Positions 983-38,196 of a DNA stretch of 64,000 nt are shown piece by piece. Under the pieces are notes generated by a model. It was not told where the DNA came from and made no database searches. It saw nothing but the letters and a program-made list of their open reading frames with translations. The position numbers and the translations under genes are program-made. Source of the stretch: an uncultured Candidatus Saccharibacteria bacterium. GTDB lineage: Bacteria; Patescibacteriota; Minisyncoccia; Phycocordibacterales; JACOZG01. Each line of letters begins with the position of its first letter. Position 1 is the first letter of the stretch. The stretch covers positions 112,565 to 176,564 of the forward strand of contig CAYWPU010000001.1 of the NCBI GenBank assembly GCA_964460805.1. The letters run 5' to 3'.

Positions 983-988
983 TCAATT

Positions 989-3313: not shown

Positions 3314-3425
3314 TCGGTTGTCCAATTCAGTGATCACCGCCCCATGTTGCAAGACATGTGGGCGGTTTCTTTTTGCTCAAAAAATTTTATTTTCTGTTAG
3401 AATTAAGGGAGCATTTTCTAACAAG

Positions 3426-4640: not shown

Positions 4641-4644
4641 TTTC

Positions 4645-5103: not shown

Positions 5104-5125
5104 TTTTGCTAAAATTATCCTCAAG

Positions 5126-5596
5126 ATGTCACAGCGCGGCTTTGGCCTACTGGAGATAGTGATTGGCACCAGCATTATTTTTGTTTTTTTCTTTGCTCTC
5201 ATGGGTGCGCTAACTTCCGGCATCCGTCTCAACGAGCGTAACTTGCGCGCCACCCGGGCCTCTTTTCTCCTCACCGAGGGAGTAGAAGCGGCTAAGATGC
5301 TCCGTGCCAGCGGCTGGAGTGCCAATATCGCATCGCTCAATAGCAATACCGCTTATTCCCTAGAGTGGACTGGCACGGCTTGGCGTCCAACCACCACCAT
5401 CGCCTTAGTAGATAACCGCTACGAGCGTCGTCTCCACTTCCACTCTGCCTATCGTGACGGCAGTCAGGATCTTGCCAGCTCTGGCACCATAGACCCAGGC
5501 ACGCGGAGACTGGTGGTGAGTGTCTCTTGGCTAGAGAATAATGCGACTACCACAGCCACGACCACTACTTATCTCACTAATTTGTTCAATAACTAG
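5126..5596 (+). CDS. Prepilin-type N-terminal cleavage/methylation domain protein (minor pilin-like)
   Basis: Leader MSQRG followed by FGLLEIVIGTSIIFV. Confidence 0.65.
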   Translation: MSQRGFGLLEIVIGTSIIFVFFFALMGALTSGIRLNERNLRATRASFLLTEGVEAAKMLRASGWSANIASLNSNTAYSLEWTGTAWRPTTTIALVDNRYERRLHFHSAYRDGSQDLASSGTIDPGTRRLVVSVSWLENNATTTATTTTYLTNLFNN

Positions 5597-5598
5597 CC

Positions 5599-6120
5599 AT
5601 GACATCTCGCTCCACACACAAGCGCGCCGGTTACACCCTCATTGAGATGATTATCTATGTGGCCGTCTTGAGCTTGCTGGCTTCTGTATTGTTCGCCAGC
5701 ATCATCATGGTGATCCAGTCTTTTGCCCGTGTCCGTGCCGTGCGCGACCTGGCCGAGAGTGGCCGCGGCGCGCTGGAGCGGGTTACTTACGAGATCCGCC
5801 GCGCTAGCGCTATCAATGATGCTGGTAGCGTGTTTAATAATCCAGCCGGCCAGCTCCAGCTGGCCACCACCAATGATGCTGGCGAGGCAACGACTATTAC
5901 GTTTGGCCTCAGCGCCGGCAATCTCACTTTGCAAGAGGGCGTGAGCGCTCCGGTCAACTTGCTCTCTGGGCACATCTCAGTGAGTAGCTTCACTCTTGCC
6001 AAGTGGGCCACCAGCACCGCTGGCGCGGTAAAAGTGGAATTAGCTCTGAGTGATGACCGCTTGGCCGGTGCTACGCCGGTGATGTTCCGTACTACCGCGG
6101 TCTCGCGCGGCAGTTACTGA
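5599..6120 (+). CDS. Prepilin-type N-terminal cleavage/methylation domain protein (minor pilin-like)
   Basis: Leader MTSRSTHKRAG followed by YTLIEMIIYVAVLSLL. Confidence 0.65.
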   Translation: MTSRSTHKRAGYTLIEMIIYVAVLSLLASVLFASIIMVIQSFARVRAVRDLAESGRGALERVTYEIRRASAINDAGSVFNNPAGQLQLATTNDAGEATTITFGLSAGNLTLQEGVSAPVNLLSGHISVSSFTLAKWATSTAGAVKVELALSDDRLAGATPVMFRTTAVSRGSY

Positions 6121-10265: not shown

Positions 10266-11957
10266 ATGTCGGAAGATTTGTTAAATCAGCTCTTGCTGGC
10301 GCGCGGACTGGAGACGCCGGAACAGCGCGAGCAATTCCTCCAGCCTAGCTACGCCCGCGATATTGCCGATCCGTTTTTATTATCCGGCATGGAGCAAGCG
10401 GTGGCGAGAGTTCTGCAGGCAATTAAAAATACAGAGAAGATAATAATTTTTGCGGATTATGACGCTGACGGCGTGCCAGGCGCGGCTGTGCTCGCTGAAT
10501 TTTTTAGGAAAATAAAATTTAGTAATTTTGAAGTTTATATTCCCAATAGACACACGGAAGATTACGGCCTGATGGAGAAGAGTGTGCGGGAATTTGCGGC
10601 TAATCAGGCTAAGCTGATCATTACTATAGATTGCGGGATTAGTAATTTTGCAGAAGTAAAATTAGCGAATGAGCTTGGTCTAGACGTGATTATCACTGAC
10701 CACCATCTTCCACCACCGGTTTTGCCAGGGGCTCTTGCGATTGTGAATCCTAAAGTGGGGAGTGAGAATTATCCCGACAAGATGCTCTGTGGCGCGGGAG
10801 TGATTTTTAAGCTAGTCCAGGCGCTAATCGCGCGTGGCGATTTTAATTTAGATAAAAATTGGGAGAAAACACTATTAGATCTAGTAGCTATTGCAACTAT
10901 CTCTGATCGTGTGCCACTGCTGGCCGAGAACCGCGCACTGGCTAAATTTGGCTTGCTGATCCTCCAGCGCACGCCGCGGCCCGGTTTGCTCGCGCTCTTG
11001 CAGGCTGGCAAGATCAAGCAGAAGTACATTACAGAAGATGATATCGGCTATATGCTGGCGCCAAGATTGAATGCGGCAAGCAGGATGAGTCACGCTTCAG
11101 AAGCTTATTTTCTCTTAACGACCAAGAATCCGGCCGAGGCGCAAGCAATGGCGGCGCATCTGGAAAATAAAAATAGCGAACGGAAAAAATTAGTGGAGGG
11201 TATTATGCAAACAGCAGAGTCTAAAATACCTGCAGATGATCTACCAGAGCTGATTGTGTTGGGAGATAAAACTTGGTCGCCGGGTGTGCTGGGCTTGGCG
11301 GCAAGTAAATTGGTAGAAAAATTCTCGCGCCCTGTTTTCCTCTGGGGTGGCAATAATGGCGAAGTAAAAGGCTCCTGCCGCTCAGACGGCACTATCAATC
11401 TTGTGGAACTAATGCGCGCGGTGAACAGAGATGATCCGCCAGCTGGCGGATTCTTCAGTAACCTGGGCGGCCATGCCATGGCTGGCGGCTTCTCGCTCGC
11501 GGCGGCAAAAGTGGCAGAATTAGAGCAGAAGTTGCTGGAGGCTCACGCGCAGGCAGAGAAATTGGAACCGGAAGCAGAAAATAAGTTTGACGCGGCTATC
11601 TCTATTGATGAAGTAGACGAGCGCGCCTGGCGGCTGCTAGAGCAACTCGCGCCATTTGGCCCCGGCAATCCCAAACCAATTTTCTATCTGCCGAATATAG
11701 AAATTGCTCAGGCCAGGACCTTTGGCAACGGCGGCATCCACCTGGAGTTGAGCTTTAAGAAAAGCAATCCGCCATCCGCCGGCTGGCGGAGCGGAGAAAA
11801 AGTCTGCGCCGTAGGCTTCTTCACCAGTTCTAGCAAGTTTAAAGATGTGAAGTTAACAGCGGGGAGCAAGATCAATCTCTATGCCACGCTGGAGAAGTCG
11901 TTCTTTAAAGCTAATCCGGAAATCAGGTTGCGGATAGTGGATATTGTGGCTCAGTAG
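10266..11957 (+). CDS. recJ: Single-stranded-DNA-specific exonuclease RecJ
   Basis: DHH family motifs (ADYDADGV, ITDHH), DHHA1 region and C-terminal OB-like domain. Confidence 0.8.
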   Translation: MSEDLLNQLLLARGLETPEQREQFLQPSYARDIADPFLLSGMEQAVARVLQAIKNTEKIIIFADYDADGVPGAAVLAEFFRKIKFSNFEVYIPNRHTEDYGLMEKSVREFAANQAKLIITIDCGISNFAEVKLANELGLDVIITDHHLPPPVLPGALAIVNPKVGSENYPDKMLCGAGVIFKLVQALIARGDFNLDKNWEKTLLDLVAIATISDRVPLLAENRALAKFGLLILQRTPRPGLLALLQAGKIKQKYITEDDIGYMLAPRLNAASRMSHASEAYFLLTTKNPAEAQAMAAHLENKNSERKKLVEGIMQTAESKIPADDLPELIVLGDKTWSPGVLGLAASKLVEKFSRPVFLWGGNNGEVKGSCRSDGTINLVELMRAVNRDDPPAGGFFSNLGGHAMAGGFSLAAAKVAELEQKLLEAHAQAEKLEPEAENKFDAAISIDEVDERAWRLLEQLAPFGPGNPKPIFYLPNIEIAQARTFGNGGIHLELSFKKSNPPSAGWRSGEKVCAVGFFTSSSKFKDVKLTAGSKINLYATLEKSFFKANPEIRLRIVDIVAQ

Positions 11958-12442: not shown

Positions 12443-12874
12443 ATGACTAAAATTATCTTACACACAGACGGCGGTGCGCGGGGGAATCCGGGACCAGCGG
12501 GGGCTGGGGTTGCTATTTTAGATGAGAAAAGTGCAGTTTTACAGACAGCAAAAAAATTTCTGGGTGAAGAATTGACTAATAATGAGGCAGAATATCAGGC
12601 ACTGCTCTTTGGTTTGCAGACGTTCTGGGAGTTTTTTAAAGAAAAAACCGAGCTTAAAAATTTAAGTTTAGAAGTCAAATTAGATAGCGAGCTGGTGGTC
12701 AAGCAATTGCGCGGCGAATATAAGATTAAAGAAGTCAGATTGCAGGCGCTGGCGGCAGAAGTGAAGGCGGTGATCAATTATCTGGGTTTGGCGAGTCTTA
12801 CCTTCACCCACGTGCGGCGGGAGGAGAATAAACTCGCTGATCAATTAGCTAACGAGGCGATGGACGCGCGATGA
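12443..12874 (+). CDS. rnhA: Ribonuclease HI
   Basis: HTDGGARGNPGPAGAGV matches the RNase H type-1 motif (TDGSxxGNPGPGG). Strong RBS (ggaggg). Confidence 0.7.
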   Translation: MTKIILHTDGGARGNPGPAGAGVAILDEKSAVLQTAKKFLGEELTNNEAEYQALLFGLQTFWEFFKEKTELKNLSLEVKLDSELVVKQLRGEYKIKEVRLQALAAEVKAVINYLGLASLTFTHVRREENKLADQLANEAMDAR

Positions 12875-14358
12875 CGCGGCGGGCCGGGTTCTTCTTATTT
12901 TTCTTTGCTGGCATTGGACTGGGGTCGGGTCTCGGCTGGGGCTGGGCGGGCGTAGTTTATTTTCTGCTCATCAGCGCGGGTTTATTTGCCGTCTCGCGCT
13001 CGCGGCCAGCAGAGCGCCGAGCGCTACTGATTAGCTTTTCTATTTTTAGCCTCGCTCTGGCATTGGGACTAGCGCGGGTTAATTTTGCTAATTTTGGCAC
13101 TGCTAGCGAGAGTGATTTGAGTGAAAAGATTGGCTCGGAGATAGAGCTGACGGGGATGATCTCCGGCGAGCCGGACGAGCGCGAGGAGAGCGTGCGGCTC
13201 ACTTTCTCGCCAGATGATTTAACAGAAAAAGTTCTGATAGTAACCGGCAAGTATCCAGCGCGCGTCTATGGCGAGCGTTTGCGGGTTACTGGCAAGCTGG
13301 AGCGGCCGGAGAACTTTGAAACCGATGCCGGCCGGCAATTTGATTATATTAATTATCTTAGTAAAGATGAGATCTACTACATCATCCGCCAGCCTAGATT
13401 AGAATCGCTTGGCTTGGATAATTCCGTGCTTGTAAAGACACGCCGCGCGCTCTTCACTTTTAAACAAGCTTTCCTCGCCAAGCTCACACGCACCTTGCCC
13501 GAGCCGCATGCGGCGCTCTTGGGTGGCGTGACGATTGGCGCGCGGCGGGGGATGCCGGAGCTGTGGCAGGAGCGCTTCCGCACCGCCGGACTCTCGCACA
13601 TTGTTGTTCTCTCTGGTTATAACATAACGATAGTTGCCGAGATGATGTTAAAAGCTCTGTCCTTCCTACCCGCACTCGCCGCCACGCTGGCTGGTGCCGC
13701 GAGCGTGGTGGTCTTCACGCTTGCTACCGGCGCCAGTTCCACCACCGTGCGCGCGTCTATCATGGCGCTGGTGGCACTGCTGGCGCGGGCCACTGGCCGA
13801 GTGTATCAGTCACTGGATGCGCTCTTGCTGGCCGCCTTCTGCATGATCATTTACCAGCCTAAAGTTTTGCTCTTTGATCTCAGCTTCCAGCTCTCGTTCC
13901 TGGCCACTTGGGGGATCATTGTTGGCCCGCCGCTCATCCGGCCTTATCTTGGCTGGATTACGGAACGCCTCAGCTTCCGTGAGTTAGTAGTCAGCACGCT
14001 CTCTGCGCAAATTGCTGTCTTGCCTTGGATCCTCTATAAAATCGGTCAGCTCTCGTTTGTCGCTCTGCCCACTAACTTGCTAGTGCTCACCTTTGTGCCG
14101 TTCGCCATGTTCTTGGGTTTCTTTGTTGCCCTCGCCGGATTCTTAAATTATTTCCTCTCGTTGCCGTTTGCTTATCTGGCTTATATCTTGCTCGCATACA
14201 TCCTGGCTATAACCAAATTTGCCGCCGCTCTGCCTTATGCGGCGGTTTACTTGCGCTATTTCCCGCTCTGGCTCACGCTTCTGGTTTATTTTTTCTTCAT
14301 CTGGTTCTGGCAAAGACGGGAAAATCAGGCAAAAAAACAGGCACGCGCACACCGGTGA
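12871..14358 (+). CDS. comEC: ComEC/Rec2 DNA-uptake channel protein: N-terminal DUF4131 and competence domain, no MBL domain
   Basis: Polytopic membrane protein with LGGVTIGARRGMPELWQERFRTAGLSHIVVLSGYNI, matching the competence-domain signature (SHLLAISGLH-like). ATGA start/stop overlap with rnhA. Confidence 0.7.
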   Translation: MTRRAGFFLFFFAGIGLGSGLGWGWAGVVYFLLISAGLFAVSRSRPAERRALLISFSIFSLALALGLARVNFANFGTASESDLSEKIGSEIELTGMISGEPDEREESVRLTFSPDDLTEKVLIVTGKYPARVYGERLRVTGKLERPENFETDAGRQFDYINYLSKDEIYYIIRQPRLESLGLDNSVLVKTRRALFTFKQAFLAKLTRTLPEPHAALLGGVTIGARRGMPELWQERFRTAGLSHIVVLSGYNITIVAEMMLKALSFLPALAATLAGAASVVVFTLATGASSTTVRASIMALVALLARATGRVYQSLDALLLAAFCMIIYQPKVLLFDLSFQLSFLATWGIIVGPPLIRPYLGWITERLSFRELVVSTLSAQIAVLPWILYKIGQLSFVALPTNLLVLTFVPFAMFLGFFVALAGFLNYFLSLPFAYLAYILLAYILAITKFAAALPYAAVYLRYFPLWLTLLVYFFFIWFWQRRENQAKKQARAHR

Positions 14359-14481: not shown

Positions 14482-15357
14482 ATGTCTACACTCTGGCGCA
14501 AAGCAAGATGGTTCCTGCTCGGTTTTATTCTGGTTTCTAGTTTACTCACTTGGCGAGCGGTTTTTAGTTATAATCAGCAGGATTATCTCACTCTGGCAGT
14601 GTTAGATATAGGCCAGGGCGATGCGATTTTTATTGAAGATAGAGCGGGGCATCAGATCCTGATAGACGGCGGGCCGGGGAGTGCTATCCTCTCAGCTTTA
14701 CCAGAGCTGATGGACTTCTCTGATCGCCACATTGATCTATTGATCGTTTCTCATCCGCATGCTGATCACTTGTCTGGCTTGGTGGAGATCTTGAAGCGCT
14801 ATGAAGTTGATGCGGTGTTGGAGGCTGGGGCAATCTACGACAGCGCGCTCTTCCGCGAGTGGCAGCGCTTAATTGCGGAAAAGGAGATAACGCATATCAT
14901 CGCCCAGCGCGGCGAGCGGGTTAAATTAGCTGGTGGCGATGTGTTGGAGATCATCGCGCCGTTCCAGAATTGGGGAGGAGTGGAGGCTAAAGAGATCCAC
15001 GATAGCATGGTGGTGGCACGGCTCTGGGCGGCAGGCTCTAGTGTGGCGATGCTCACTGGTGACGCAGAGGTGAGTGTGGAAGCGGAGTTGATTAAAACAG
15101 GTGAGAATTTAAATTCTAAAATATTAAAAGTCGGCCATCACGGCTCTAAGACTTCTACTTCTGAGAGTTTTCTCACAGCAGTGGCGCCGGAGGTGGCTCT
15201 GATTTCCGTTGGTAATCCAAATAGATATGGCCACCCATATCCGGGAACTCTGGAGAGGTTAGAACAATTTGGCGTGCCAGCCTTGCGCACAGATCAAGAG
15301 GGGACTATTATTTTTAAGATAAACGGGGAAACAGGAGAGATTAGGCAGCAAACTTGA
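14482..15357 (+). CDS. ComEC-type metallo-beta-lactamase-fold domain protein, a separate ORF in the same frame as the upstream comEC
   Basis: LAVLDIGQGDAIFIE...HPHADHLSGL (HxHxDH MBL motif). Has its own N-terminal TM segment and a TATAAT box 12 nt upstream. Confidence 0.7.
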   Translation: MSTLWRKARWFLLGFILVSSLLTWRAVFSYNQQDYLTLAVLDIGQGDAIFIEDRAGHQILIDGGPGSAILSALPELMDFSDRHIDLLIVSHPHADHLSGLVEILKRYEVDAVLEAGAIYDSALFREWQRLIAEKEITHIIAQRGERVKLAGGDVLEIIAPFQNWGGVEAKEIHDSMVVARLWAAGSSVAMLTGDAEVSVEAELIKTGENLNSKILKVGHHGSKTSTSESFLTAVAPEVALISVGNPNRYGHPYPGTLERLEQFGVPALRTDQEGTIIFKINGETGEIRQQT

Positions 15358-18219: not shown

Positions 18220-20361
<2,142 letters not shown>

Positions 20362-20387
20362 TACAGCAACTCCCAACTCCAAGATTC

Positions 20388-20440
20388 AAAAAAATAACCC
20401 CGAGCAGACGGATTGTCTGCCCGGGGTTTGCTGGTTTTGC
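20388..20440. terminator. Bidirectional rho-independent terminator: CCCCGAGCAGAC-ggatt-GTCTGCCCGGGG with an A-run 5' and a T-run 3'
   Basis: 12-bp stem with one mismatch, between convergent fusA (+) and the lipoprotein gene (-). Confidence 0.7.
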
Positions 20441-20458
20441 GCCCAGCTTTGCCAAGTA

Positions 20459-21079
20459 TCAGCCAGCTCGGGCCATACTTTGCTTGACCAGCTTAGTCTC
20501 CGGCTCTGCTGGAGACGCGGGGGCTGGTGGCACAATGGGCGCACGCTTGCGTGCTTGGGCGATATCCTTTTTGAGTTTAAGGATAAGGGCGCCGATGACC
20601 GAGTTCTGCCTCGTACTATCGTGCCAGCCTGCCTCAAAGGCCTGATCGTGAAGTGCCGAATCGGCGCCCTCAATCAGCATACTGGCCCGGGTGCGGACCC
20701 GGCTTACCCCTTGGGTGGCGCCAAGGGCGGCACCGGAGCGCGCGTCATAGCCGCTCAGCACATACTTAATCTGGTAGGGGATCCCGATCGTCAATTGTTC
20801 CAGCTCGGCGGGCTCGTAGATATCCAGTATCTGCACCACCAGCTTGGCTCGTCGCGGGTCGGTCTCAGACCAAGCCAGATCGTCCTTGATTGCTCTGCTC
20901 AAATTGCTCTGTATCAGAGTACAGAGCTTGTCGGGGGCATAGGGTAACCCAGAACTAGCCTGGACTCCTGCCACCTCCAGCGATTGGTAACCCGAGAGCG
21001 AGAGGTTGCTCTCTGGCCCGCAACCGCTGACCAGGGCCACATAGGCCACTACCGCCCAAGCGATCCGTGCAATCTTCAT
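20459..21079 (-). CDS. Hypothetical lipoprotein inserted between fusA and tuf
   Basis: Signal peptide with lipobox LVSGC; C-terminal P/A-rich tail. Opposite strand to the str operon. Confidence 0.5.
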   Translation of the reverse strand: MKIARIAWAVVAYVALVSGCGPESNLSLSGYQSLEVAGVQASSGLPYAPDKLCTLIQSNLSRAIKDDLAWSETDPRRAKLVVQILDIYEPAELEQLTIGIPYQIKYVLSGYDARSGAALGATQGVSRVRTRASMLIEGADSALHDQAFEAGWHDSTRQNSVIGALILKLKKDIAQARKRAPIVPPAPASPAEPETKLVKQSMARAG

Positions 21080-21194
21080 GTTTCATCCTCCAGAAAAAGG
21101 GAAAAGAAGTGAAAGGAACTACGAACTAACGCCAATTACATCATAGCCCAGTTTCTTTTTTCTGGCTACCTGTTTGTGTTATAGTTTGGGTATT

Positions 21195-21854
21195 ATGAAA
21201 AATGCAAAATCCGGATTCACTATGCTGTCCCTCACCGTTCTGGTGGTCGTTGTTGCTCTAATTGCTGGCAGTGCCTATCTCTACACCAAGCCAGAAGAAG
21301 AGATAATTCCTGTCTCGCCAATAGATGGCGAAGTGAGCGAGGGAGAGGAAGGAGGGACTCAGATCGCTTGCACCATGGACGCTAGGCAGTGCCCGGACGG
21401 CTCTTATGTCGGACGTGTTGGGCCAAAATGCGAGTTTGCAGATTGTCCAAGTACTCCTTCTGTCAATTTGACCACGCGTGTCTCGGATGAGCAGATGATC
21501 GGTGCGGCAATCAGCCGATGGCCACCCCAGGAGTTCAGAAACAGTGCACAAGTCAAACAGATTTATCGTGGCGACCTAAATCGTGATGGTTTCGCTGATG
21601 CTATTGTTTCGGTTTTTGGTTGCGGCGCCTCTTGTGGCGAGGCGACATTCCTCATCATTGATGATGGTGGCTTACCCAAGCTCTTGCCGCCTGCACCCAT
21701 ACTTATTAAAGGTTATGGCTATGAAGATCCTGGCATAAGGGTGGTATCGATCAAGGACGGGATTATCACGGTCAACAACACAAAGAGTGGACAGTTTACT
21801 GGTGTGGTTAGCAAATATAGACTGGAAGGGGAGACAGTCGCTGAGGTTGAGTGA
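21195..21854 (+). CDS. Hypothetical membrane-anchored Cys-rich protein with a pilin-like N-terminus lacking Glu+5 (KSGFTMLSLTVLVVVVAL)
   Basis: ATG 21195. N-terminal hydrophobic anchor. Six Cys in the first 100 residues. Confidence 0.4.
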   Translation: MKNAKSGFTMLSLTVLVVVVALIAGSAYLYTKPEEEIIPVSPIDGEVSEGEEGGTQIACTMDARQCPDGSYVGRVGPKCEFADCPSTPSVNLTTRVSDEQMIGAAISRWPPQEFRNSAQVKQIYRGDLNRDGFADAIVSVFGCGASCGEATFLIIDDGGLPKLLPPAPILIKGYGYEDPGIRVVSIKDGIITVNNTKSGQFTGVVSKYRLEGETVAEVE

Positions 21855-21972: not shown

Positions 21973-23175
21973 ATGGCAGAAACATTTGATCGTTCCAAGC
22001 CACACGTCAATGTGGGCACCATCGGCCACGTTGACCACGGCAAGACAACCCTCACGGCGAGCATTCTCCATGTACTTGATCTTAATAAAGATAAAGGCTA
22101 TGGCGCTCGGGTAGAGGGCATTGACGGTATTGATAACGCTCCGGAAGAGAAAGCGCGTGGCATTACCATTGCGCTCCACCACAGCGAGTACTGGACTCCC
22201 AAGCGTCACTACGCGCACATTGATGCTCCTGGTCACGCTGACTATATCAAGAACATGATCACCGGTGCCGCCCAGATGGATGGCGCTGTGATCGTTGTAG
22301 CCGCAACTGATGGCGTGATGCCTCAGACTCGTGAGCACATCCTGCTGGCTCGCCAAGTGGGCGTGCCTAAGATTGTAGTTTTCCTGAACAAGTGCGACAT
22401 GGTGGACGATGCTGAGCTGATTGACTTGGTGGAGGCGGAAGTCCGTGAGCTCTTGAGCAAGAACGGCTTTGACGGCGACAATGCGCCGGTAATCCGCGGT
22501 TCCGGTCTCAAGGCTCTGGAGGCCAAGAGCGCCAGCGACGAATGGGCGATGAAGGTCTTTGCTCTCATTGAGGCTCTGGATACTTATCTCCCTGATCCGG
22601 TCCGCGAGGTTGATAAGCCTTTCCTCATGCCGGTAGAGGATATCTTCTCTATTGAAGGCCGTGGCACGGTAGTGACTGGCCGCATCGAGCGCGGCAAGCT
22701 CAAGGTGGGTGAGGAAATTGAGATCGTTGGTCTCAATCCTACCACCAAGACTACGGTGACTGGCATTGAGATGTTTAACAAGCAACTGGACGAGGGTATG
22801 GCTGGTGATAACGCCGGTATCCTGCTCCGTGGTACTAAGAAAGAGGACGTGACTCGTGGTCAGGTGCTAGCTAAGACTGGCTCAGTTACTCCGCACACCG
22901 ACTTTGAGGCCGAAGTGTATATCTTGAAGAAGGAAGAGGGAGGTCGCCACACGCCGTTTCTCTCTGGCTACAAGCCCCAGTTCTATATCCGCACTACTGA
23001 TGTAACTGGTGAAGTCACTCTTGAGGACGCCAGCAAGATGGTGATGCCGGGCGACACCGTCAAGTTTGTCGTTAAGCTGGTAGCGCCTGTTGCTCTAGAA
23101 CAGAATCAGCGCTTTGCGATCCGCGAGGGTGGCAAGACGGTGGGTGCCGGTGTGGTAACTAAGATCATTGCTTAA
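21973..23175 (+). CDS. tuf: Elongation factor Tu
   Basis: [24 protein letters not shown] and NKCD motifs. Confidence 0.95.
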
Positions 23176-25258: not shown

Positions 25259-26098
25259 ATGAAGTCCTATCGTCCATATACTCCTAGCCAGCGCCAAGCC
25301 AGCACCGTGCCTTATCGCGGTGTGATCACGGCCAGCGAGCCCAAGAAGAGCCTGACCCGCGGCCGCAAGCGCGCGGTGGGCCGCAATCATGCTGGGCGCA
25401 TTACCACTCGCCACAAGGGTGGCGGCCACAAGCGTCTCTACCGCGAGATTGACTTTAAATACGACAAAATCAATATCACCGCACGGGTGGAGACGGTGGA
25501 GTATGACCCCAACCGCAGTGGCTTTATTGGCCTGGCGCTCTATGCCGATGGCGAGCGGCGCTACACGCTCTTGCCAGCCTCTCTGCGCCCAGGCGATCGC
25601 TTTATCACCAGCGCTGAGGCCGAGCTCAAGACGGGCAATCGTCTGCCACTCAAGAAGATCCCAGTGGGCACCTTTATCTACAATATTGAGGTCCAGCCCA
25701 ATGGCGGTGCCAAGCTGGTGCGCTCGGCTGGCTCTTTTGCCCAGGTACTCTCTAACGATGCTGGTTACACTAGCGTGAAGTTGCCCTCCACCGAGGTGCG
25801 GCGAGTGAGCGAGCTGGCCTGGGCTAGCATTGGCGCTGTCTCTAACGAGGAGCAGAAGCTAGCTAACCTTGGCAAGGCCGGGCGCAGTCGCTGGCTGGGT
25901 ATCCGGCCCACCGTGCGTGGCAGTGCCATGAACCCGGTAGACCACCCCTACGGCGGCGGTGAGGGCCGCCAGGGCCGCGGTACGCGTCGCCCCAAGACTG
26001 CCCACGGCAAGGTTACCGGCGGCCGCAAGACCCGCCGACCCAAGAAGTACTCCAACGTCTTCCGTGTTACCCGGAGGCAGAAGAAGGGGAGAAAGTAA
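25259..26098 (+). CDS. rplB: 50S ribosomal protein L2
   Basis: HKGGGHKR, VEYDPNRS and MNPVDHPYGGGEG uL2 motifs. Confidence 0.9.
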   Translation: MKSYRPYTPSQRQASTVPYRGVITASEPKKSLTRGRKRAVGRNHAGRITTRHKGGGHKRLYREIDFKYDKINITARVETVEYDPNRSGFIGLALYADGERRYTLLPASLRPGDRFITSAEAELKTGNRLPLKKIPVGTFIYNIEVQPNGGAKLVRSAGSFAQVLSNDAGYTSVKLPSTEVRRVSELAWASIGAVSNEEQKLANLGKAGRSRWLGIRPTVRGSAMNPVDHPYGGGEGRQGRGTRRPKTAHGKVTGGRKTRRPKKYSNVFRVTRRQKKGRK

Positions 26099-26110
26099 AA
26101 ACCGCGCTTT

Positions 26111-26467
26111 TTACTTTCTCTTTTGGGCTATTCCATAGCCTCCTAACCCACCACCGAACGCTCCAGTCAGAAAGCTTAATACTTCACTAAACAAGTCAGG
26201 TTTTTTCCACATGACTAGACCTGAAAACAATATTACGAAAATAAGAACAACTAGCAAATAGAACTTACTATCTCTTGATTCTCGTTTTTTGTCCTCGTGA
26301 ATGTAACCAGTTATTTCTCGTTTCTGTGAGAGTAGTTCATCAACCTGTTCTTTGGTAAAATTAGGGGTGTTGTCTGCCCCGAGAACTTTTTGTAACAAAA
26401 TACTCATTTCGTGTGAATTTTCTTCACGAGGTTGGGAAGTCGCGATGCTCTTATCTTCTTCAGGCAT
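26111..26467 (-). CDS. Hypothetical small membrane protein with a C-terminal glycine-zipper (GAFGGGLGGYG)
   Basis: 118-aa ORF in an AT-rich patch. One TM segment. Start overlaps the stop of the upstream ORF. Confidence 0.4.
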   Translation of the reverse strand: MPEEDKSIATSQPREENSHEMSILLQKVLGADNTPNFTKEQVDELLSQKREITGYIHEDKKRESRDSKFYLLVVLIFVILFSGLVMWKKPDLFSEVLSFLTGAFGGGLGGYGIAQKRK

Positions 26468-26726
26468 GTCTAACTTGTTTGGTTTTAAGATGCATAAACA
26501 TTGATCTTGTTTCAGTCTGCTGGTTTGTAAAAGGCGTCAATACTCTTGCCTCATTTTTAAATTCCTTCTTCAAGACCAAATTTAGTAACAATGCCGCCTC
26601 TCTCTCAGTGATTCTTTTCTCTATCCTCGCTTTCGTGATTGAATCTACAGTATCCACAAAATCATTTTCATAGAGGCTTTTTTCTTCTGAAAAATTATAG
26701 TTTTTGTCTAGATTTATTTTTTTCAT
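26460..26726 (-). CDS. Hypothetical small protein (88 aa)
   Basis: ORF translationally coupled to 26111-26467. AT-rich. No family recognised. Confidence 0.3.
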   Translation of the reverse strand: MKKINLDKNYNFSEEKSLYENDFVDTVDSITKARIEKRITEREAALLLNLVLKKEFKNEARVLTPFTNQQTETRSMFMHLKTKQVRHA

Positions 26727-26815
26727 AGTGATATGTCACCAGTATCATCATATACTATCCACAAAGAGATCTCAACCCCTCTCTTTTGCAAGTCGTAGTA
26801 AAATACTAGACAGGG

Positions 26816-26850
26816 CTAAAAACCGCACTAATAAAACAGGGCGGTTTTTG
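26816..26850. terminator. Hairpin AAAACCGC-actaataaaacag-GGCGGTTTTT, a bidirectional terminator candidate
   Basis: 8-bp stem flanked by an A-run and a T-run. A TTGTTATAAT -10 box follows, for the gene at 26866. Confidence 0.5.
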
Positions 26851-26865
26851 TTATAATAGAAATAG

Positions 26866-28560
26866 ATGAAAGACAAGACTTACTTCGCTGAGACTGACTT
26901 CCGTGGTAAGCGGACCAAGTTCGGCATCAAGTTTGAGGATAGAGCCCGGCACGTGTATGTGATCGGTAAGACGGGCATGGGCAAGAGTACGATGCTGGAG
27001 AACATGGCGGTGCAGGATATCCAGGATGGTCATGGCGTCGCCTTCATTGACCCGCACGGCGGCACGGCAGAAAAGTTGCTGGATTATGTGCCGGAGCATC
27101 GGATCAAAGACGTGATTTACTTTGCGCCTTTTGATCTCAATAATCCAATCTCGTTCAATGTGATGGAGGATGTGGGACCAGAGCAAAGACATTTAGTTGT
27201 CTCTGGCTTGATGAGCGCGTTTAAGAAGCTCTTTGGCGAGGAGAGCTTCTCTGACCGCATGCAGTATATTCTCCAGAACACGCTGCTGGCATTGCTAGAG
27301 TATCCGGAATCTACATTGCTTGGCGTGAACCGCATGCTCACTGATAAGGCTTATCGGAATAAAGTGGTGGCGAATGTGACGGATTCTTCGGTTAAAGCTT
27401 ACTGGACGCAGGAATTTGCCAATTACACCGAGCGCTTTGCGGCGGAAGCGACGCCAGCGATCCAGAACAAGATCGGCCAGTTCACTTCCAATCCATTGAT
27501 CAGGAATATTATCGGCCAGCCTAAATCCTCTTTTGACTTCCGCAAAGTGATGGACGAGCAGAAGATCCTGATCATTAACTTATCTAAAGGTCAGATCGGC
27601 GAGGGCAATGCCAACCTGCTTGGCTCCATGATCATTACCAAGATTTATCTCGCCGCCATGAGTCGCGCTAACTTGTCTGCCGCGCAGATCCGGCTCTTGC
27701 CAGCATTTTACTTTTTCGTAGACGAGTTCCAGTCTTTTGCCAACGAGTCTTTTGCCAATATTCTCTCAGAAGCCAGAAAATATAAACTCTCACTCACGAT
27801 TGCGCATCAGTACATAGAGCAGATGAGTGAAGAAGTGCGCGCGGCGGTCTTTGGCAACGTGGGTACTGTCGTGTCGTTTAGAGTTGGCCCTTTTGATGCG
27901 GAAGTATTTGAGAAGATCTTCAGTCCCACTTTTACTAAAGAGGATATGGTGAACTTGGGCTTTGCGCAGATTTATCTGACCATGATGATAGATGGCGTTG
28001 GTTCGCAACCCTTCTCAGCACTAACTCTGCCACCTATTAAAGAAGAAGCACGCTCGTGGAAGCCGGAGATCATTGAGAGCTCGCGACGGCTCTATGCTCG
28101 TCCCAAGGCGGCCGTTGAGGCGGATATCGCCGAGTGGGTGATCCAGAGGCCGCCTGGCGCGGCTGAGGCTCAGCCAGCGCCAGGCGGCAAGCGTCCGGCG
28201 GGGCGGCCCGAGGTGAGACGAGACGCGCCCGCCACGGCGTCAGTTGTGACAGTGAGCAAGCGCCACGTGGAGCCGGAGAAGGTTGCCAAGCCTGCACCTA
28301 GGAGGCCGGAACCAGTAGCGCCGGCGACTGTCTCGCTCAAGTCACTGGCGCAGAAGGCGGAAGGGAAAGAGAAGAGTACCGGCAAGCATAGTGCTGATCT
28401 GAAAGATGTGATCACGGCTGTGCAGAATGAATTGAAGAGTGCTTTGCCAAAGGCGGATGAGGTCAAAGTGGCAGAGACTGGAGATAAAGTATCCTCACCG
28501 TCAGGAGTAGAGAAAAAAGAGATACCGGAGGCAGAGCTGAAGAAGATGCTGGAGGTCTAG
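26866..28560 (+). CDS. Soluble TraD/VirD4-like (type IV coupling protein, DUF87/TraG-D_C-like) AAA+ ATPase with a Pro/Ala/Lys/Glu-rich disordered C-terminus
   Basis: Walker A GKTGMGKST. FIDPHGG. Walker-B-like FFVDEFQSF. RKYKLSLTIAHQYIEQMSEEVRAAVFGNVGTVVSFRVG resembles the T4CP C-terminal domain. No N-terminal TM. Confidence 0.55.
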   Translation: MKDKTYFAETDFRGKRTKFGIKFEDRARHVYVIGKTGMGKSTMLENMAVQDIQDGHGVAFIDPHGGTAEKLLDYVPEHRIKDVIYFAPFDLNNPISFNVMEDVGPEQRHLVVSGLMSAFKKLFGEESFSDRMQYILQNTLLALLEYPESTLLGVNRMLTDKAYRNKVVANVTDSSVKAYWTQEFANYTERFAAEATPAIQNKIGQFTSNPLIRNIIGQPKSSFDFRKVMDEQKILIINLSKGQIGEGNANLLGSMIITKIYLAAMSRANLSAAQIRLLPAFYFFVDEFQSFANESFANILSEARKYKLSLTIAHQYIEQMSEEVRAAVFGNVGTVVSFRVGPFDAEVFEKIFSPTFTKEDMVNLGFAQIYLTMMIDGVGSQPFSALTLPPIKEEARSWKPEIIESSRRLYARPKAAVEADIAEWVIQRPPGAAEAQPAPGGKRPAGRPEVRRDAPATASVVTVSKRHVEPEKVAKPAPRRPEPVAPATVSLKSLAQKAEGKEKSTGKHSADLKDVITAVQNELKSALPKADEVKVAETGDKVSSPSGVEKKEIPEAELKKMLEV

Positions 28561-28564
28561 TGTT

Positions 28565-29641
28565 ATGGATAATAAAATTAGGGTTCTGATTTTTTCTCTA
28601 GCGCCCTTATCGGCCATTGGTGGTGCGGAGGTGGCGGTTAGGGAATTAACTGAGCGGCTGGGCGATCACTTTGATTTTGCCGTAGTCAGCGCTGACATCA
28701 ATAATTTTTGGTCTAAATATTTTTATCCGCTTTGGGCGGTACGCCAGGCTCTGACCTTACACCGAGAGCGCCCATTTACGCTGGTCTGGTCGATTATGGC
28801 CAATCAGGCTGGTATAGCCGGTGCGCGCTTCAAGAGATTACACCCCAATATCCCATTTTTACTTACTCTGCAGGAGGGAGACGATTTGGGTAGCTTGTCT
28901 TATCGTTTGCGTTTGCTTGTACCCAGATTCTTTAGAGTTTTCCAGCTCGCGGATCATGTCCACGCAATTTCTAATTATCTCGCGCGTTGGGCGTGGCGGA
29001 TGGGAGCAACTTGCCCGATTGCTGTTATTCCCAACGGTGTAGATTTCCAGAAATTTGCCAATGGGCGAGAAACTAGCCGTCACAATTTAGAGAATAGAAA
29101 AGAAGAAATAATTATCACCACGTCTAGATTGGCCAGGAAAAATGGCATTGATATCTTGGTGAGAGCGCTTGCTCTATTGCCGGCAGATGTCAGGCTAGAG
29201 ATTATCGGTGATGGTCCGGAGGAGGCTAATCTCAAGCGTTTGGCCACGAGCCTGCAAGTGGCCGCTAGAGTCTCATTTTGCGGTCAGGTGAGGAGTTCTG
29301 AGGTGGGGCAGTGCTTGGCACGGGGGGCGGTTTTTGCCAGACCATCGCGCTCTGAGGGCCTTGGGAACTCTTTTATAGAGGCTATGGCTATTGGTTTACC
29401 AGTGGTGGCCACGGCGGTGGGTGGTATCCCGGACTTTCTCAAGCCCGGCGAGACCGGCTGGTTCTGCACCGTAGATGATCCGGTCAGCCTTGCCGCTCAG
29501 ATCAAGTATATTTTAGACGAGAAAAACCAAACAGACGTGAGTGAAGTGATAGCTAGAGCCAAAAAATTAGTGTCAGAGAGTTACGATTGGGAGGTGGTTG
29601 CCAAGCGCTTCCACAAACTGCTAGAGTCTATAGTGCAATGA
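28565..29641 (+). CDS. Glycosyltransferase family 4
   Basis: EGLGNSFIEAMAIGLPVVATAVGGIPDF (GT4 E-x7-E region). Confidence 0.75.
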   Translation: MDNKIRVLIFSLAPLSAIGGAEVAVRELTERLGDHFDFAVVSADINNFWSKYFYPLWAVRQALTLHRERPFTLVWSIMANQAGIAGARFKRLHPNIPFLLTLQEGDDLGSLSYRLRLLVPRFFRVFQLADHVHAISNYLARWAWRMGATCPIAVIPNGVDFQKFANGRETSRHNLENRKEEIIITTSRLARKNGIDILVRALALLPADVRLEIIGDGPEEANLKRLATSLQVAARVSFCGQVRSSEVGQCLARGAVFARPSRSEGLGNSFIEAMAIGLPVVATAVGGIPDFLKPGETGWFCTVDDPVSLAAQIKYILDEKNQTDVSEVIARAKKLVSESYDWEVVAKRFHKLLESIVQ

Positions 29642-35967: not shown

Positions 35968-36364
35968 CTCTTTGATCTCTCAGTTTCGACGTTATCCGGT
36001 TTTTGTTTTCGTAGGCGTGGTTGGTGTGGTACTTAACTTAGGGCTTACATATGTTTTCACTGACCTTCTAGGTTGGTGGTATTTACCCTCTTTTATATTA
36101 GCCACCTTGGTGACCTGGTCTGTTGGTTTCTGGCTTAATTCTCAGCTAACCTTTTCTGGTCACAACCAGGTCAATTTTTGGAAGTCTTATTTAAAGTTCA
36201 TATCCTTATATTTATTATTGAGTCCACCGGCTTTCTATCTCATTTATGCACTTACTTCCTGGGTTCATCTTCACTATCTTGTGAGCGCGTTATTGGTTAA
36301 TATTTTAAGTTCTGTGCTTACCTTCCTGATTACTCAGAGGCGAATTTTTAATTATTGCCCCTAA
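35960..36364 (+). CDS. GtrA-family membrane protein (polysaccharide synthesis/translocation)
   Basis: 134 aa. Four TM helices. N-terminus YPVFVFVGVVGVVLNLGLTYVFT is typical of GtrA. Confidence 0.65.
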   Translation: MSNSLISQFRRYPVFVFVGVVGVVLNLGLTYVFTDLLGWWYLPSFILATLVTWSVGFWLNSQLTFSGHNQVNFWKSYLKFISLYLLLSPPAFYLIYALTSWVHLHYLVSALLVNILSSVLTFLITQRRIFNYCP

Positions 36365-36372
36365 ATTTTTCT

Positions 36373-38196
36373 ATGTGTGGGATTATTGGCACGGCTGGTG
36401 AACCGATTGACTCTCAACACTTTTCTGAACGCGTGCAGAGTCTACGGCACCGGGGTCCAGATGGTACGGGTTACTTCTCGTCGCAGGACGGATCGCTCCG
36501 CTTGGCGCATCACCGCTTGGCGGTTATTGATCTCAGCGATCGGGCCAAGCAACCCATGACTATAGAGGGCTGTACTCTAGTCTATAACGGCGAGATTTAT
36601 AATTATCTGGAATTGAAGCGGGAAATTGGCGGAGAATTTTCTTCCAGTTCTGATACCGAAGTAATCTTGCGTGGTTACTTGCACTGGGGTGCGGCGGTAT
36701 TTGCCAAGCTAGACGGCATGTTTGCTCTGGCGATCTATGATTCCCGCTCGGGGGAGTTAATCCTGGCCCGCGATCGCATGGGGATCAAACCGCTCTATTA
36801 TATTCAAAAGGGCAATGAACTACAGTTCGCGTCTGAGATCCAAGGCCTAGAGACAGAGAGACAAATCAACCCTGACGCTATCCGTTCCTACCTATTCCAG
36901 AACTATGTTTATGCAGAAGAGGAAATTCTCTGTGGGGTACGGAGTTTCCCCGCCGGTTGTTATGGTCTATTTCGTCTCCAGCAGGGGAACTGGCTAGTGC
37001 AATCTTATCTGGCTGTGCCGGCACTTCCTCAAGCTCTGTCCGGTGTGGAGGGATTAGACATGGGCCGCCAGGTTCTGCGGGATTCTGTTCGGCGCTCACT
37101 GCTTAGTGATGTGCCCTTGGGAGTCTTCTTGTCTTCTGGCGTTGATTCCAGCTTGATAGCCGCACTAGCGCAAGAGGTCGCTGGCGGGGTTAACACCTTT
37201 ACTGTCAGCTTCGATTCCGCCTCTTTCGACGAATCAGCGAGGGCGGGAGAGATTGCTCAGATTCTGGGTACTAATCACCACCGCATCGAACTGGATAAGC
37301 GAGAAGTGTTAGCGCAGATTCCCCAGATTCTTGACCACTTCCATATGCCTTTCGGCGATTCTAGTGCCTTACCCTTTTATTTTCTCAGTCTCTATGCTCG
37401 AGAACGAGTGAAAGTGGCGCTGTCTGGCGATGGTGCGGATGAGCTCTTTGGTGGTTACCCCCTCTACTACTTACCGCCTATTGCGCGACTCTACCGTCTC
37501 TTGCCGGGCAGTTCTCTGGTGGAGTGGTTGGTATCCAAGCTGCCGGCTTCCTTCCAGAAGATGAGCTTTGACGAGAAGGCGCGGCGTTTTACCCTGGCCG
37601 CTAGGCACGATTATCGTGCGGCGCACTTCTGGTACCGCGCGATGCATAATAGTTTGGCGTTACGGCCGGAATATCAGCTGGACCCCCGGCCCTTACTCAG
37701 TCTTTTCGCCAGCTTGTCTGGCCTCAGTGTTCCCGAGCAACTAATGCGCGTAGATCAGCACACAGTGCTAGAGCGTGATTATCTGGTAAAAGCCGATCGC
37801 ATGAGTATGGCTCACGGCCTGGAAGTGCGATTGCCTTTCCTGAATAACCGGGTCGTTGACTTTGCCGCTAGCTTACCTGCAGAGCTTAAAGTGCGCCGCT
37901 TTACCACCAAGGTCTTGCTGAAGAAGATTCTGGAGGACTACCTGCCTAAGCGATTGATCTATACCAAGAAGCAGGGATTCTCCTTCCCGGTGGCCGAGTG
38001 GTTATGCGGAGAGCTTAAAGAGCTAATGTTCGCCACTCTCTCTCGCAAACAGGTGGCGCAAGTGCCGTACTTGGACTATAGTGGAGTGCAAGGAATGATC
38101 CAAGATCATCTAGAGCGCCGGCGCGACTATAGTCGCGAGCTCTGGGGATTGATCAGCTTGGTTCGTTATCTCAGCAGACAAGATGCAGAAGCTTAG
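36373..38196 (+). CDS. asnB: Asparagine synthase (glutamine-hydrolysing) family amidotransferase
   Basis: MCGIIG Ntn start and SGGVDSS PP-loop. Confidence 0.85.
   Translation: MCGIIGTAGEPIDSQHFSERVQSLRHRGPDGTGYFSSQDGSLRLAHHRLAVIDLSDRAKQPMTIEGCTLVYNGEIYNYLELKREIGGEFSSSSDTEVILRGYLHWGAAVFAKLDGMFALAIYDSRSGELILARDRMGIKPLYYIQKGNELQFASEIQGLETERQINPDAIRSYLFQNYVYAEEEILCGVRSFPAGCYGLFRLQQGNWLVQSYLAVPALPQALSGVEGLDMGRQVLRDSVRRSLLSDVPLGVFLSSGVDSSLIAALAQEVAGGVNTFTVSFDSASFDESARAGEIAQILGTNHHRIELDKREVLAQIPQILDHFHMPFGDSSALPFYFLSLYARERVKVALSGDGADELFGGYPLYYLPPIARLYRLLPGSSLVEWLVSKLPASFQKMSFDEKARRFTLAARHDYRAAHFWYRAMHNSLALRPEYQLDPRPLLSLFASLSGLSVPEQLMRVDQHTVLERDYLVKADRMSMAHGLEVRLPFLNNRVVDFAASLPAELKVRRFTTKVLLKKILEDYLPKRLIYTKKQGFSFPVAEWLCGELKELMFATLSRKQVAQVPYLDYSGVQGMIQDHLERRRDYSRELWGLISLVRYLSRQDAEA

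Follow-up and report, generated by a model that had tools for sequence, protein, structure and literature searches.

Genes and features of the locus

The window analyzed here, i.e. the whole stretch of 64,000 nt from contig CAYWPU010000001.1 of an uncultured Candidatus Saccharibacteria bacterium, contains downstream of a truncated ribosomal protein cluster a gene for a 564-aa P-loop ATPase that most probably belongs to the type IV coupling protein (T4CP) family. The gene is chromosomal and vertically inherited, and it is an ordinary member of a core family that is nearly universal among Patescibacteria. Its product represents a short form of this family, in which a complete ATPase module is followed by a flexible tail. 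The gene itself, the DNA in front of it and the gene behind it are organized as follows.

26866-28560, plus strand: T4CP open reading frame (ORF) of 564 aa; it is the maximal ORF after an in-frame stop, hence there is no upstream extension
26866-28140, plus strand: ATPase module, aa 1-425, with an N-terminal beta-hairpin, Walker A at aa 34-41, an all-alpha domain at about aa 105-232, Walker B residues D286/E287, R304/K305 and Q315
28141-28560, plus strand: C-terminal tail, aa 426-564, a disordered linker rich in A, K, P, E and V with three conserved short helices
26818-26857, plus strand: hairpin (inverted-repeat arms 26818-26829 and 26838-26849), T-run and TATAAT box (26852-26857), with 8 nt between the latter and the ATG
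28565-29641, plus strand: GT4 glycosyltransferase (Pfam Glycos_transf_1, E 2.8e-36), with its start 4 nt behind the T4CP stop; it heads the co-directional glycan cluster

Assignment to the T4CP family

The translation contains GKTGMGKST, FIDPHGG and RKYKLSLTIAHQY, together with a TraG-D_C-like part, exactly where a preceding sequence-only reading of this DNA, prepared by a model without database searches, had placed them. Comparison with the VirD4/TraG/TraD/TrwB families of coupling proteins (Pfam PF02534, PF10412 and PF12696) gave matches above the thresholds for TrwB_AAD_bind (residues 25-339, E 2.8e-9, 36.8 bits with a cut-off of 20.5), T4SS-DNA_transf (E 5.4e-8, 32.5 bits, cut-off 20.1) and TraG-D_C (E 9.5e-6, 26.0 bits, cut-off 22), and it was these families, not unrelated P-loop NTPases, that matched best. 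The match with DUF87 was marginal (E 4.1e-5, 24.2 bits at a gathering score of 23.2). TrwB_AAD_bind was likewise matched by 44 of 46 diverse relatives, and TrwB was also the top sequence match in the PDB, both with the single sequence and with a profile of 82 sequences. Moreover, PHROG 5156 (824 positions) was matched by the window ATPase at 2.9e-57. The NCBIfam equivalogs TraD and CD1115 remained far below their cut-offs, which places the protein outside of those specific subfamilies. Other branches of the P-loop ATPases scored poorly: FtsK_SpoIIIE of Pfam (E 0.087) was far under the threshold, the HerA models were well below cut-off, and VirB4_CagE reached 12.5 bits at a cut-off of 643. Comparison with PADLOC resulted in P-loop-level matches only (mad8 at 3e-15 and HerA models), no partner genes being noticed.

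The Walker A sequence GKTGMGKS, the Walker B sequence VDEF (D286/E287), R304/K305 and Q315 are invariant in 82 homologues and align with the motifs of TrwB. Because of this invariance, ATPase activity of the window protein is to be expected. Structure prediction with AlphaFold from the single sequence was unusable (predicted local distance difference test, pLDDT, of 35), hence an alignment-based model was used instead, which reached a mean pLDDT of 79.8 with residues 1-430 mostly at 80-98. In this model, a beta-hairpin at the N-terminus is followed by a RecA-like core, into which, as in TrwB, an all-alpha domain of about 125 residues is inserted. Searching with this model by Foldseek retrieved TrwB (target-normalised TM-score 0.60-0.64), Cag-beta, DotL, HerA and VirB4. 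The structure places the protein in the VirB4/T4CP/HerA clade, and within this clade T4CP is indicated by the sequence profiles together with the all-alpha domain. To HerA, VirB4 and DptH, the FtsK-HerA superfamily, the similarity is structural and at the level of the superfamily, whereas the sequence models of VirB4, HerA and FtsK are far below their cut-offs; genes for NurA, Sir2, Dnd or VirB partners do not accompany the window ATPase. Our confidence that the ORF encodes a T4CP-family P-loop ATPase is accordingly high.

With TrwB of plasmid R388 and with VirD4/TraG/TraD the window protein shares the P-loop domain with its inserted all-alpha domain, the Pfam families and the aligned catalytic motifs. 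However, it differs from TrwB, with which it is about 14% identical, by the lack of a transmembrane (TM) anchor and of a linked type IV secretion system (T4SS) or relaxase, and by a disordered tail of its own with conserved motifs. The absence of N-terminal TM helices and the disordered, P/A/K/E-rich tail had been noticed before and could be confirmed: no 19-residue stretch of the ATPase reaches the hydropathy threshold, homologues begin at the same residue, and aa 426-564 are largely disordered in the model. In the tail, pLDDT is below 50 at residues 432-489 and 530-550, while helices were modelled at 491-500, 507-526 and 555-563. These parts carry the conserved motifs SLxxL (aa 490-494), DLRxAL (aa 511-516, L512 invariant) and E-I-P-E-x-x-L-K-K-x-L (aa 552-562, L558 invariant). 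The elevated GC content of the tail (0.62-0.67) is an effect of the Pro and Ala codons. A match of the tail with HU-HIG (E 0.0099) was below the cut-off and was not used.

A flexible C-terminal extension with a short conserved end is also known from TraD of the F plasmid, where it docks on TraM, and the Pfam family TraG-D_C is named for it. TraD of F serves here as working analogy for the tail helices; yet, there is no sequence similarity between the tails, and no TraM-like gene is known here.

Regarding expression, a Shine-Dalgarno sequence is absent upstream of the T4CP start codon in the window (26818-26868) and equally in L170 (5330-5377), a locus with an ATPase 85% identical to the one studied here. 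L170 has the same layout, in which a hairpin is followed by TTTTGGTTATAAT and then by 7 nt to the ATG. This arrangement suggests that the T4CP gene might possess its own promoter and a leaderless or near-leaderless mRNA. The gene is not a member of the ribosomal S10 operon.

Distribution and conservation among Patescibacteria

Patescibacteria, whose genomes are tiny, account for a considerable part of bacterial diversity. The former description of the ATPase as an orphan cannot be maintained, since there are thousands of highly conserved homologues in this group. A word-indexed search gave at least 8000 scored candidates; the best 120 of them were 58-100% identical with scores of at least 732 bits, and the named ones among these 120 came from Parcubacteria, Nomurabacteria, Vogelbacteria and Patescibacteria and were called 'type IV secretion system DNA-binding domain-containing protein'. 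An exhaustive search of 50%-identity representatives yielded 21,721 proteins at E<=1e-3 and 5,767 at E<=1e-30. The record labels within the same protein clade vary, with Saccharibacteria in some titles and Parcubacteria or Paceibacterota in others.

These numbers stand beside a published survey (Quinonero-Coronel et al. 2025, PMC12102498). That study reports 5,713 VirD4-type T4CP homologues in 2,918 of 3,035 Patescibacteria genomes (~96%), only 148 of the 5,713 being located near virB4, and its authors left an exaptation of these proteins possible. According to its Table S3, Nomurabacteria genomes carry four T4CP homologues each, namely one adjacent pair and two singletons; all of them are listed as 'not near VirB4', and a VirB4/TrsD/VirB3 cluster is situated elsewhere in each genome. 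Adjacent pairs (gene n and n+1 or n+2) are listed for Paceibacteria genomes, too. In the single genetic test in the phylum, transposon sequencing (Tn-seq) of Southlakia, the T4SS was essential and the T4CP homologue non-essential (PMC12102498). In the T4SS cluster of Southlakia, neither a coupling protein nor a relaxase is recognisable (Wang et al. 2023, PMC10633639). About 96% of the Patescibacteria keep two to four copies of coupling-type ATPases that are encoded apart from their essential T4SS. The proteins of that survey resemble the window protein in belonging to the same family, in being chromosomal and usually multi-copy and in being almost never encoded beside virB4.

Sequence conservation differs strongly along the gene block to which the T4CP gene belongs in related genomes. 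Over 82 species, the median pairwise identity amounts to 74.5% (minimum 64%) for the ATPase domain, compared to 50% for the upstream DUF4015 protein and 42% for the adjacent GT4. Because the ATPase domain is far more conserved than both of them, the block can be regarded as operon-like and old, with the ATPase as its slowest-evolving member. Furthermore, the GC content of the ATPase gene matches that of the genome.

Long and short architectures

Two architectures are found among the representatives. Either the ATPase comes first and is followed by a variable tail, as in the window (short form), or it follows an extension of about 300-460 aa (long form). The long forms, with an ATPase 50-53% identical to that of the window, have two hydrophobic segments (near residues 1-30 and at about 220-240) and a conserved domain, whereas both are missing from the short forms. 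In the window copy, which is of the short Paceibacteria type, the ATPase module is complete, and the N-terminal module of the ancestral long form (about 400 aa, two TM segments) has been lost. This N-terminal module of the long type corresponds to PF26449 in the protein database.

A profile of 25 long forms aligned, with the N-terminal module included, with an 833-aa 'DUF87 domain-containing protein' of the Bacillus methanolicus plasmid pBM69 (E 7e-54) and with gp156 of Bacillus phage G (E 6e-58); these alignments covered 641-716 columns at an hhalign probability of 100%. The ATPase parts of both proteins are 29-31% identical to the window ATPase. Because the long forms align end to end with these proteins, the family descends from a coupling protein of monoderm conjugation systems. 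This agrees with what is concluded on the patescibacterial T4SS as a whole in the published survey (PMC12102498). While the long forms of the Candidate Phyla Radiation (CPR) are homologous over the full length to the pBM69 protein and gp156, whose genes lie in conjugation-type clusters with a relaxase and a VirB4-like protein, the window protein has neither the N-terminal module nor such a cluster. On pBM69, the 833-aa gene adjoins a relaxase of the replication-relaxation family, conjugal-transfer proteins and a VirB4-sized ATPase. In the jumbo phage G (L174, 2196-6338), gp156 is annotated as 'MsbA-like' and adjoins the 'VirB-like' gp155. Weaker relatives of the long T4CP were seen in SPO1-like and CP-51-like Bacillus phages. 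Relatives outside of the CPR on plasmids of Sulfitobacter and Bradyrhizobium added no functional context.

In 10 of the 77 long-form loci, for example L127 (9920-11272), the N-terminal module is a separate ORF directly 5' of the ATPase ORF, which could reflect a natural gene split or recurrent frameshifts. A free-standing ATPase has therefore natural precedents. Pairs of long paralogues only a few kb apart were observed in several long-form loci, among them L088 (6840-13108), L089, L090 and L093; the tailless partner has about 830 aa, the tailed one 950-1060 aa. Proteins of the tailless type, labelled as Berkelbacteria and Patescibacteria, make up a large family of their own, which corresponds to PHROG 5156. 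C-terminal fusions were detected among the 46 diverse relatives, i.e. treble-clef zinc fingers in seven and S1 domains in three.

Genomic neighbourhood of short and long forms

For the comparison of neighbourhoods, 80 short-form loci from species-representative genomes and several more obtained by exact look-up were combined, of which 84 were analyzed. Gene calls were made by a simple longest-ORF script and the counts are approximate; moreover, the loci come from related lineages, so that synteny counts do not represent independent events.

Short forms are embedded in a fixed same-strand block consisting of a small TM protein, DUF4015, T4CP and one or more GT4. The DUF4015 protein, which has about 395 aa, is membrane-anchored and is described as 'putative glycosyl hydrolase domain' (Pfam 6.4e-93), was found upstream on the same strand in 59 of 72 loci with enough flank; in 33 loci it occupies position -1 with a median gap of 59 nt. 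It is preceded in 32 loci by a protein of 78-94 aa with two TM segments, the two genes usually overlapping or abutting, and MurC/MurD-like ligases, RsmI and GtrA are encoded farther upstream. Of the 76 loci with enough flank on the other side, 45 have an orthologous GT4 directly behind the ATPase gene, at no more than 150 nt and often in overlap with the stop, and 12 more have it within 5 kb. GT4-like genes occur at positions +1 to +5 and never upstream, all but one on the same strand.

The window itself lacks both DUF4015 and the small TM protein, and the GT4 is in place. A terminator-like site on the plus strand was not found between 25900 and 29000, and thus none lies between the ATPase and the GT4 genes. 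The co-directional glycan cluster extends to about 48.6 kb with glycosyltransferases, methyltransferases, an epimerase and an asparagine-synthase-like gene, followed by a flippase-like gene, Wzy_C/TPR and SecA. Taken from 28565 to 52181 (~22 kb), it comprises seven or more glycosyltransferases of the GT4 or GT2 type (several with a match to Pfam 'GT4-conflict' as well), three methyltransferases, the asparagine-synthase-like amidotransferase (36355-38196), the flippase-like gene on the opposite strand and a 762-aa fusion of Wzy_C and TPR. Since L170 and L171 have quite different clusters at the same position, our reading is that it behaves like a hypervariable surface-antigen locus. The statement that VirB4, VirB6 and relaxase are missing from the neighbourhood holds true for the large window ORFs that were scanned, none of which contains such a domain.

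The long forms live in other surroundings. Among their 77 metagenome loci, none shows the DUF4015-GT4 linkage, and the recurrent neighbours are a 349-aa protein with Sigma70_r4 and a HARE helix-turn-helix (HTH) domain at -1 or -2 (21 of 77), SecD/SecF (10), an XerC/D-like recombinase (8) and TopA (6).

Proposed function and alternative explanations

The mechanism that we favour can be outlined as follows. The ATPase would assemble into a hexameric ring, which would bind a polymer and thread it at the expense of ATP, or present a substrate; the polymer would most probably be a nucleic acid such as DNA. The tail may be regarded as a gained, flexible Pro/Lys-rich tether that ends in conserved putative docking helices, and in analogy to TraD the anchor-less ATPase would be recruited in trans via these helices. 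The likeliest partner would be a membrane machine encoded elsewhere, namely a relaxase-less VirB4-type T4SS, as present in most Patescibacteria, and/or a membrane-anchored long paralogue. The T4CP gene would stand at the head of a surface-glycan operon and have a promoter of its own. The hint at nucleic acids comes from the S1 and zinc-finger fusions, the HTH-protein neighbours and the recurrent XerC/D-like and TopA genes in relatives. Taken as a full statement, a hexameric nucleic-acid translocase or substrate receptor that is recruited in trans by its tail, this proposal may prove right or wrong with about equal chances. The T4SS is the obvious candidate machine, because the patescibacterial VirB4-type T4SS has no cluster-encoded coupling protein; as the specific partner of the window ATPase, it is put forward tentatively and is somewhat doubtful.

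Several observations weigh against this proposal. The hexamer, ATPase activity and DNA binding are predictions for all members of the family. The short form has no TM domain, which canonical T4CPs need for their work with a T4SS, and the N-terminal module did not occur as a separate gene when six-frame ORFs of the window and of 86 short-form loci (10 kb) were searched by tblastn and hidden Markov models. T4SS genes were not among the recurrent neighbours within 10 kb in the 84 short-form loci, and the strongest conserved linkage of the short form is with envelope-glycan genes, not with DNA-handling genes. The Southlakia homologue was dispensable although the T4SS was essential (PMC12102498); we assume that redundancy of paralogues could account for this dispensability. 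Finally, the view of the genome comprises 64 kb, and the coexistence of paralogues is taken from the published table only.

The linkage with glycan genes leads to the alternative that survives best. A soluble coupling-type ATPase might have been exapted to the envelope and work there with the extracytoplasmic, glycoside-hydrolase-like DUF4015 enzyme and the GT4 enzymes, whose genes would be transcribed together with its own. It could, for instance, drive or control how a surface glycopolymer or glycoprotein is assembled or exported, or serve this machinery as an assembly chaperone. This would fit to the fixed same-strand order of the small two-TM protein, DUF4015, T4CP and GT4(s), with DUF4015 upstream in 59 of 72 loci and GT4 directly behind the ATPase gene in 45 of 76 (no farther than 5 kb in 12 more), to the persistence of this linkage despite divergence of DUF4015 and GT4 to median identities of 50% and 42%, and to the window GT4 that begins 4 nt behind the ATPase stop without a terminator in between. 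However, the long-form relatives in other CPR classes show no glycan linkage, L170 has no co-directional GT4 but a convergent, different glycan cluster despite 85% identity of the ATPase (L006 is similar), and the window is devoid of DUF4015 and the small TM protein. The synteny is perhaps partly inherited, since the loci come from related lineages, and the domains fused to relatives bind nucleic acids and are not carbohydrate modules. Moreover, we know of no ATPase of the FtsK/HerA/T4CP clade that takes part in making or exporting glycans, no literature search having been aimed at this point. The explanation is weakened by the missing precedent, by the absence of the linkage in the long forms and by its loss in L170, and we consider it unlikely. 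Its more specific version, in which Paceibacteria rewired an anchor-stripped coupling ATPase into a glycan operon as cytoplasmic motor or organiser of a surface glycopolymer or glycosylated structure, is a little less likely still; if true, it would be a function never described for the FtsK/HerA/T4CP clade.

The points counted against each of the three further explanations make them less likely than the exaptation to the envelope. A housekeeping DNA translocase like FtsK or HerA, serving chromosome segregation, dimer resolution or repair without relation to secretion, would be consistent with the near-universal presence and slow evolution of the family, with the XerC/D-like (8 loci), TopA (6) and HTH (21) neighbours of the long forms, with the S1 and zinc-finger tails and with HerA and FtsK among the structural matches. 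It is nevertheless improbable, given that the sequence profiles yield T4CP families and not FtsK (FtsK_SpoIIIE E 0.087), that the T4CP-type all-alpha domain is present, that multiple paralogues per genome are unusual for a segregation motor, and that the Southlakia homologue is non-essential (PMC12102498). FtsK, which CPR bacteria may encode in addition, is named in papers about the Saccharibacterium TM7x.

The type IV pilus and ComEC had been brought into play as partners in DNA uptake, such that the ATPase would pull incoming single-stranded DNA through ComEC downstream of the pilus. Genes for PilB, PilC, RecJ and a split ComEC indeed lie in the window 12-26 kb upstream, and a parallel exists in the archaeal Ced/Ted systems, which import DNA by ATPases of the T4SS family; there is also a weak match with NCBIfam CedD. 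However, the latter is limited to the P-loop (29.8 bits at a cut-off of 600), ComEC is distant in the window with translation genes filling the intervening stretch, and neither ComEC nor pilus genes are among the recurrent neighbours in the 84 short-form or 77 long-form loci. Without synteny support from these related loci, the suggested link falls away as a conserved association, and a role as uptake motor appears highly improbable.

The idea that the ATPase is a remnant of a conjugative or defence element integrated after rplB, to which relatives outside of the CPR on plasmids and phages, the P-loop matches in PADLOC (mad8 3e-15, HerA) and the AT-rich adjacent patch might lend some credit, is largely refuted and hardly credible, because the gene has a genome-like GC content and belongs to a conserved chromosomal block in which its neighbours evolve faster, thousands of orthologues share 60-85% identity, the rplB-adjacent position is common to relatives with 85% and 72% identity in spite of differing intervening genes, no integrase, relaxase, tRNA or other element gene is present in the window, and the AT-rich DNA belongs to a separate two-gene cassette.

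Both the gene family of the proposed nucleic-acid translocase or substrate receptor and its independence from virB4 have been published before (PMC12102498), and such proteins already bear a name at NCBI. The division into long and short architectures, the DUF4015-T4CP-GT4 block and the association of long forms with HTH proteins were not found in the searched parts of this survey and come from the present analysis. In the literature searched, we found no description of the short, soluble, tailed Paceibacteria form and its place in a surface-glycan operon, of the end-to-end homology of the long form to the T4CP of a Bacillus plasmid, or of the HTH association of the long form. The recognition of a soluble, tailed form under strong purifying selection in a glycan operon turns the vague 'orphan T4CP' into testable hypotheses, which concern the docking partner of the tail, the nucleic-acid substrate, and whether the ATPase serves the T4SS, a membrane-anchored paralogue or envelope assembly.

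The break of the ribosomal operon after rplB

The plus strand of the window carries in this order rpsL, rpsG, fusA, two ORFs without assignment, tuf (21973-23175), rpsJ, rplC, rplD, rplW and rplB. The following features define the upstream border of the locus.

25259-26098, plus strand: rplB (L2), final gene of the truncated S10 ribosomal cluster
26089-26120, no strand assigned: perfect-junction hairpin with 16-nt arms (inverted repeat), overlapping the rplB stop and the 3' end of orf118; terminator-like site for the minus strand

A motif scan of the whole window in all frames revealed no S19, L22, S3, L16, L14, S17, L5, S8 or SecY; loose patterns for L22 and S5 had one match apiece, one inside a gene of the glycan cluster and one in another gene. 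The ribosomal operon really ends at rplB in the window, and the S10 operon is thus broken at this point as had been recognized before, with no S19, L22, S3 or other motifs of the S10/spc operons beyond it. The hairpin at 26089-26120 is likely a bidirectional terminator.

This break is shared. Homologues of L2 occupy the matching position in L001, L004, L005 and L170, and the S10 cluster was seen to stop at rplB in three related genomes (window 25259-26866, L170 2945-5375, L001 2397-8001). L170 and L001 are the two closest relatives with recovered upstream flank. In L170, rplB is followed by a 463-aa discoidin-domain protein, the T4CP and the convergent, different glycan cluster. In L001, in which the ATPase is 72%, L2 85% and GT4 62% identical, three genes including surface proteins with Ig-like and PKD domains are found between rplB and the T4CP, which is followed by GT4. 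Because both of these relatives also have rplB and then the T4CP, the rearrangement by which the S10 cluster was broken and the T4CP block came to lie behind rplB dates further back in this sub-lineage. Between rplB and the T4CP there is a variable slot with different cargo in each of the three genomes. A recent insertion of the ATPase gene after rplB, as had been supposed, is not compatible with the slot being shared by relatives with 85% and 72% identity, and most relatives have DUF4015 upstream instead. As to phylogenetic distribution, the family is by no means confined to the window, and the position next to rplB is common to the nearest relatives of the window copy only and is not universal.

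Scans for tRNA and Rfam families over the whole window gave zero matches; therefore, the window contains no tRNA-linked integration site and no known riboswitch or leader. Several further observations were made upstream. The str operon is interrupted between fusA and tuf by two ORFs without Pfam match (20300-20947, 215 aa; 21174-21854, 226 aa). Type IV pilus genes lie at 950-6120 and encode a PilB-like T2SSE ATPase with MshEN and a PilC-like T2SSF protein, the subsequent short ORFs being possible pilins. ComEC appears to be split into 12871-14358 (DUF4131 and Competence domain) and 14482-15357 (metallo-beta-lactamase domain), and RecJ (10266-11957) is located just 5' of it.

A probably mobile two-gene cassette in the rplB-T4CP slot

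In the window, the variable slot is occupied by AT-rich DNA with the following features.

26460-26726, minus strand: orf88, a small soluble protein of 88 aa; first gene of the cassette, its stop overlapping the orf118 start by 8 nt
26111-26467, minus strand: orf118, a small membrane protein of 118 aa with cytoplasmic N-terminus; second gene of the cassette
26775-26747, minus strand: promoter-like site TTGAGA-17-TATGAT (10/12 match) facing orf88
26096-26108, no strand assigned: left direct repeat of 13 nt, TAAAAACCGCGCT, 12/13 identical to the right copy at a spacing of 721 nt
26817-26829, no strand assigned: right direct repeat of 13 nt, TAAAAACCGCACT, which is also the left arm of the hairpin preceding the T4CP gene

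Directly behind the rplB stop, the GC content drops from about 0.6 to 0.34-0.38 over roughly 760 nt (26150-26900), compared to about 0.5-0.65 on either side; for the cassette it is 0.364 and for the whole window 0.512. The AT-rich patch with two coupled ORFs on the opposite strand, one of them a membrane protein with a glycine zipper, was verified; in the product of orf118, a single strong TM segment spans aa 69-87, and the GxxxGxxxG zipper lies C-terminally at aa 102-110. The 36 homologues of orf118 are 44-100% identical, and most have about 120 aa, a few being shorter (87-108 aa). Common to them are a cytoplasmic segment of strong conservation (…FTkeQVDELLSQKRe…), a single TM helix and the zipper. 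Searches of orf88 and orf118 against Pfam, NCBIfam, PHROGs and PADLOC gave nothing above threshold, and weak matches of the small ORFs with AbbA, EssA and SecE were dismissed.

The same cassette was found at three unrelated loci, L167-L169, as pairs of an 88-90-aa and an approximately 119-aa protein with the identical 8-nt overlap. It is located beside rplB in the window, before bipA in L167, before thrS in L168 and between pth and an S1-domain gene in L169. The copies are 64-70% identical to that of the window at the DNA level over about 600 nt, and in every locus the cassette has a lower GC content (0.30-0.36) than the host DNA (0.38-0.51). It thus combines what characterizes a mobile two-gene unit, i.e. 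a small, translationally coupled pair, varying positions and deviant composition. The orf88/orf118 pair is most probably a small, horizontally moving cassette that is unrelated to the ATPase and has landed in the rplB-T4CP slot. The view of the AT-rich pair as part of the ATPase system had to be given up, since it occurs independently next to bipA, thrS and pth elsewhere. By its type, we read the pair as a putative toxin-antitoxin-like or membrane-stress cassette.

Flanking repeats of 11-13 nt are present in the window, L167 and L168 but are not clear in L169, and at such a length chance is plausible in AT-rich DNA. Tentatively, the 13-nt repeats may represent a target duplication of the original rplB terminator that was caused by the insertion. 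Small ORFs with a GIY-YIG domain were noticed near the cassette in two of the three other genomes (L167, 5284-5544, 86 aa; L168, 7117-7407, 96 aa), which may be linked to its movement or may be a coincidence. Similar arrangements exist in about 20 short-form loci, in which a small ORF of 70-190 aa on either strand is situated between the DUF4015 and T4CP genes, for example in L002, L008, L010, L011, L020, L052, L058 and L060. The region just 5' of the T4CP gene, including that of the window, seems to be a recurrent landing site for small genes.

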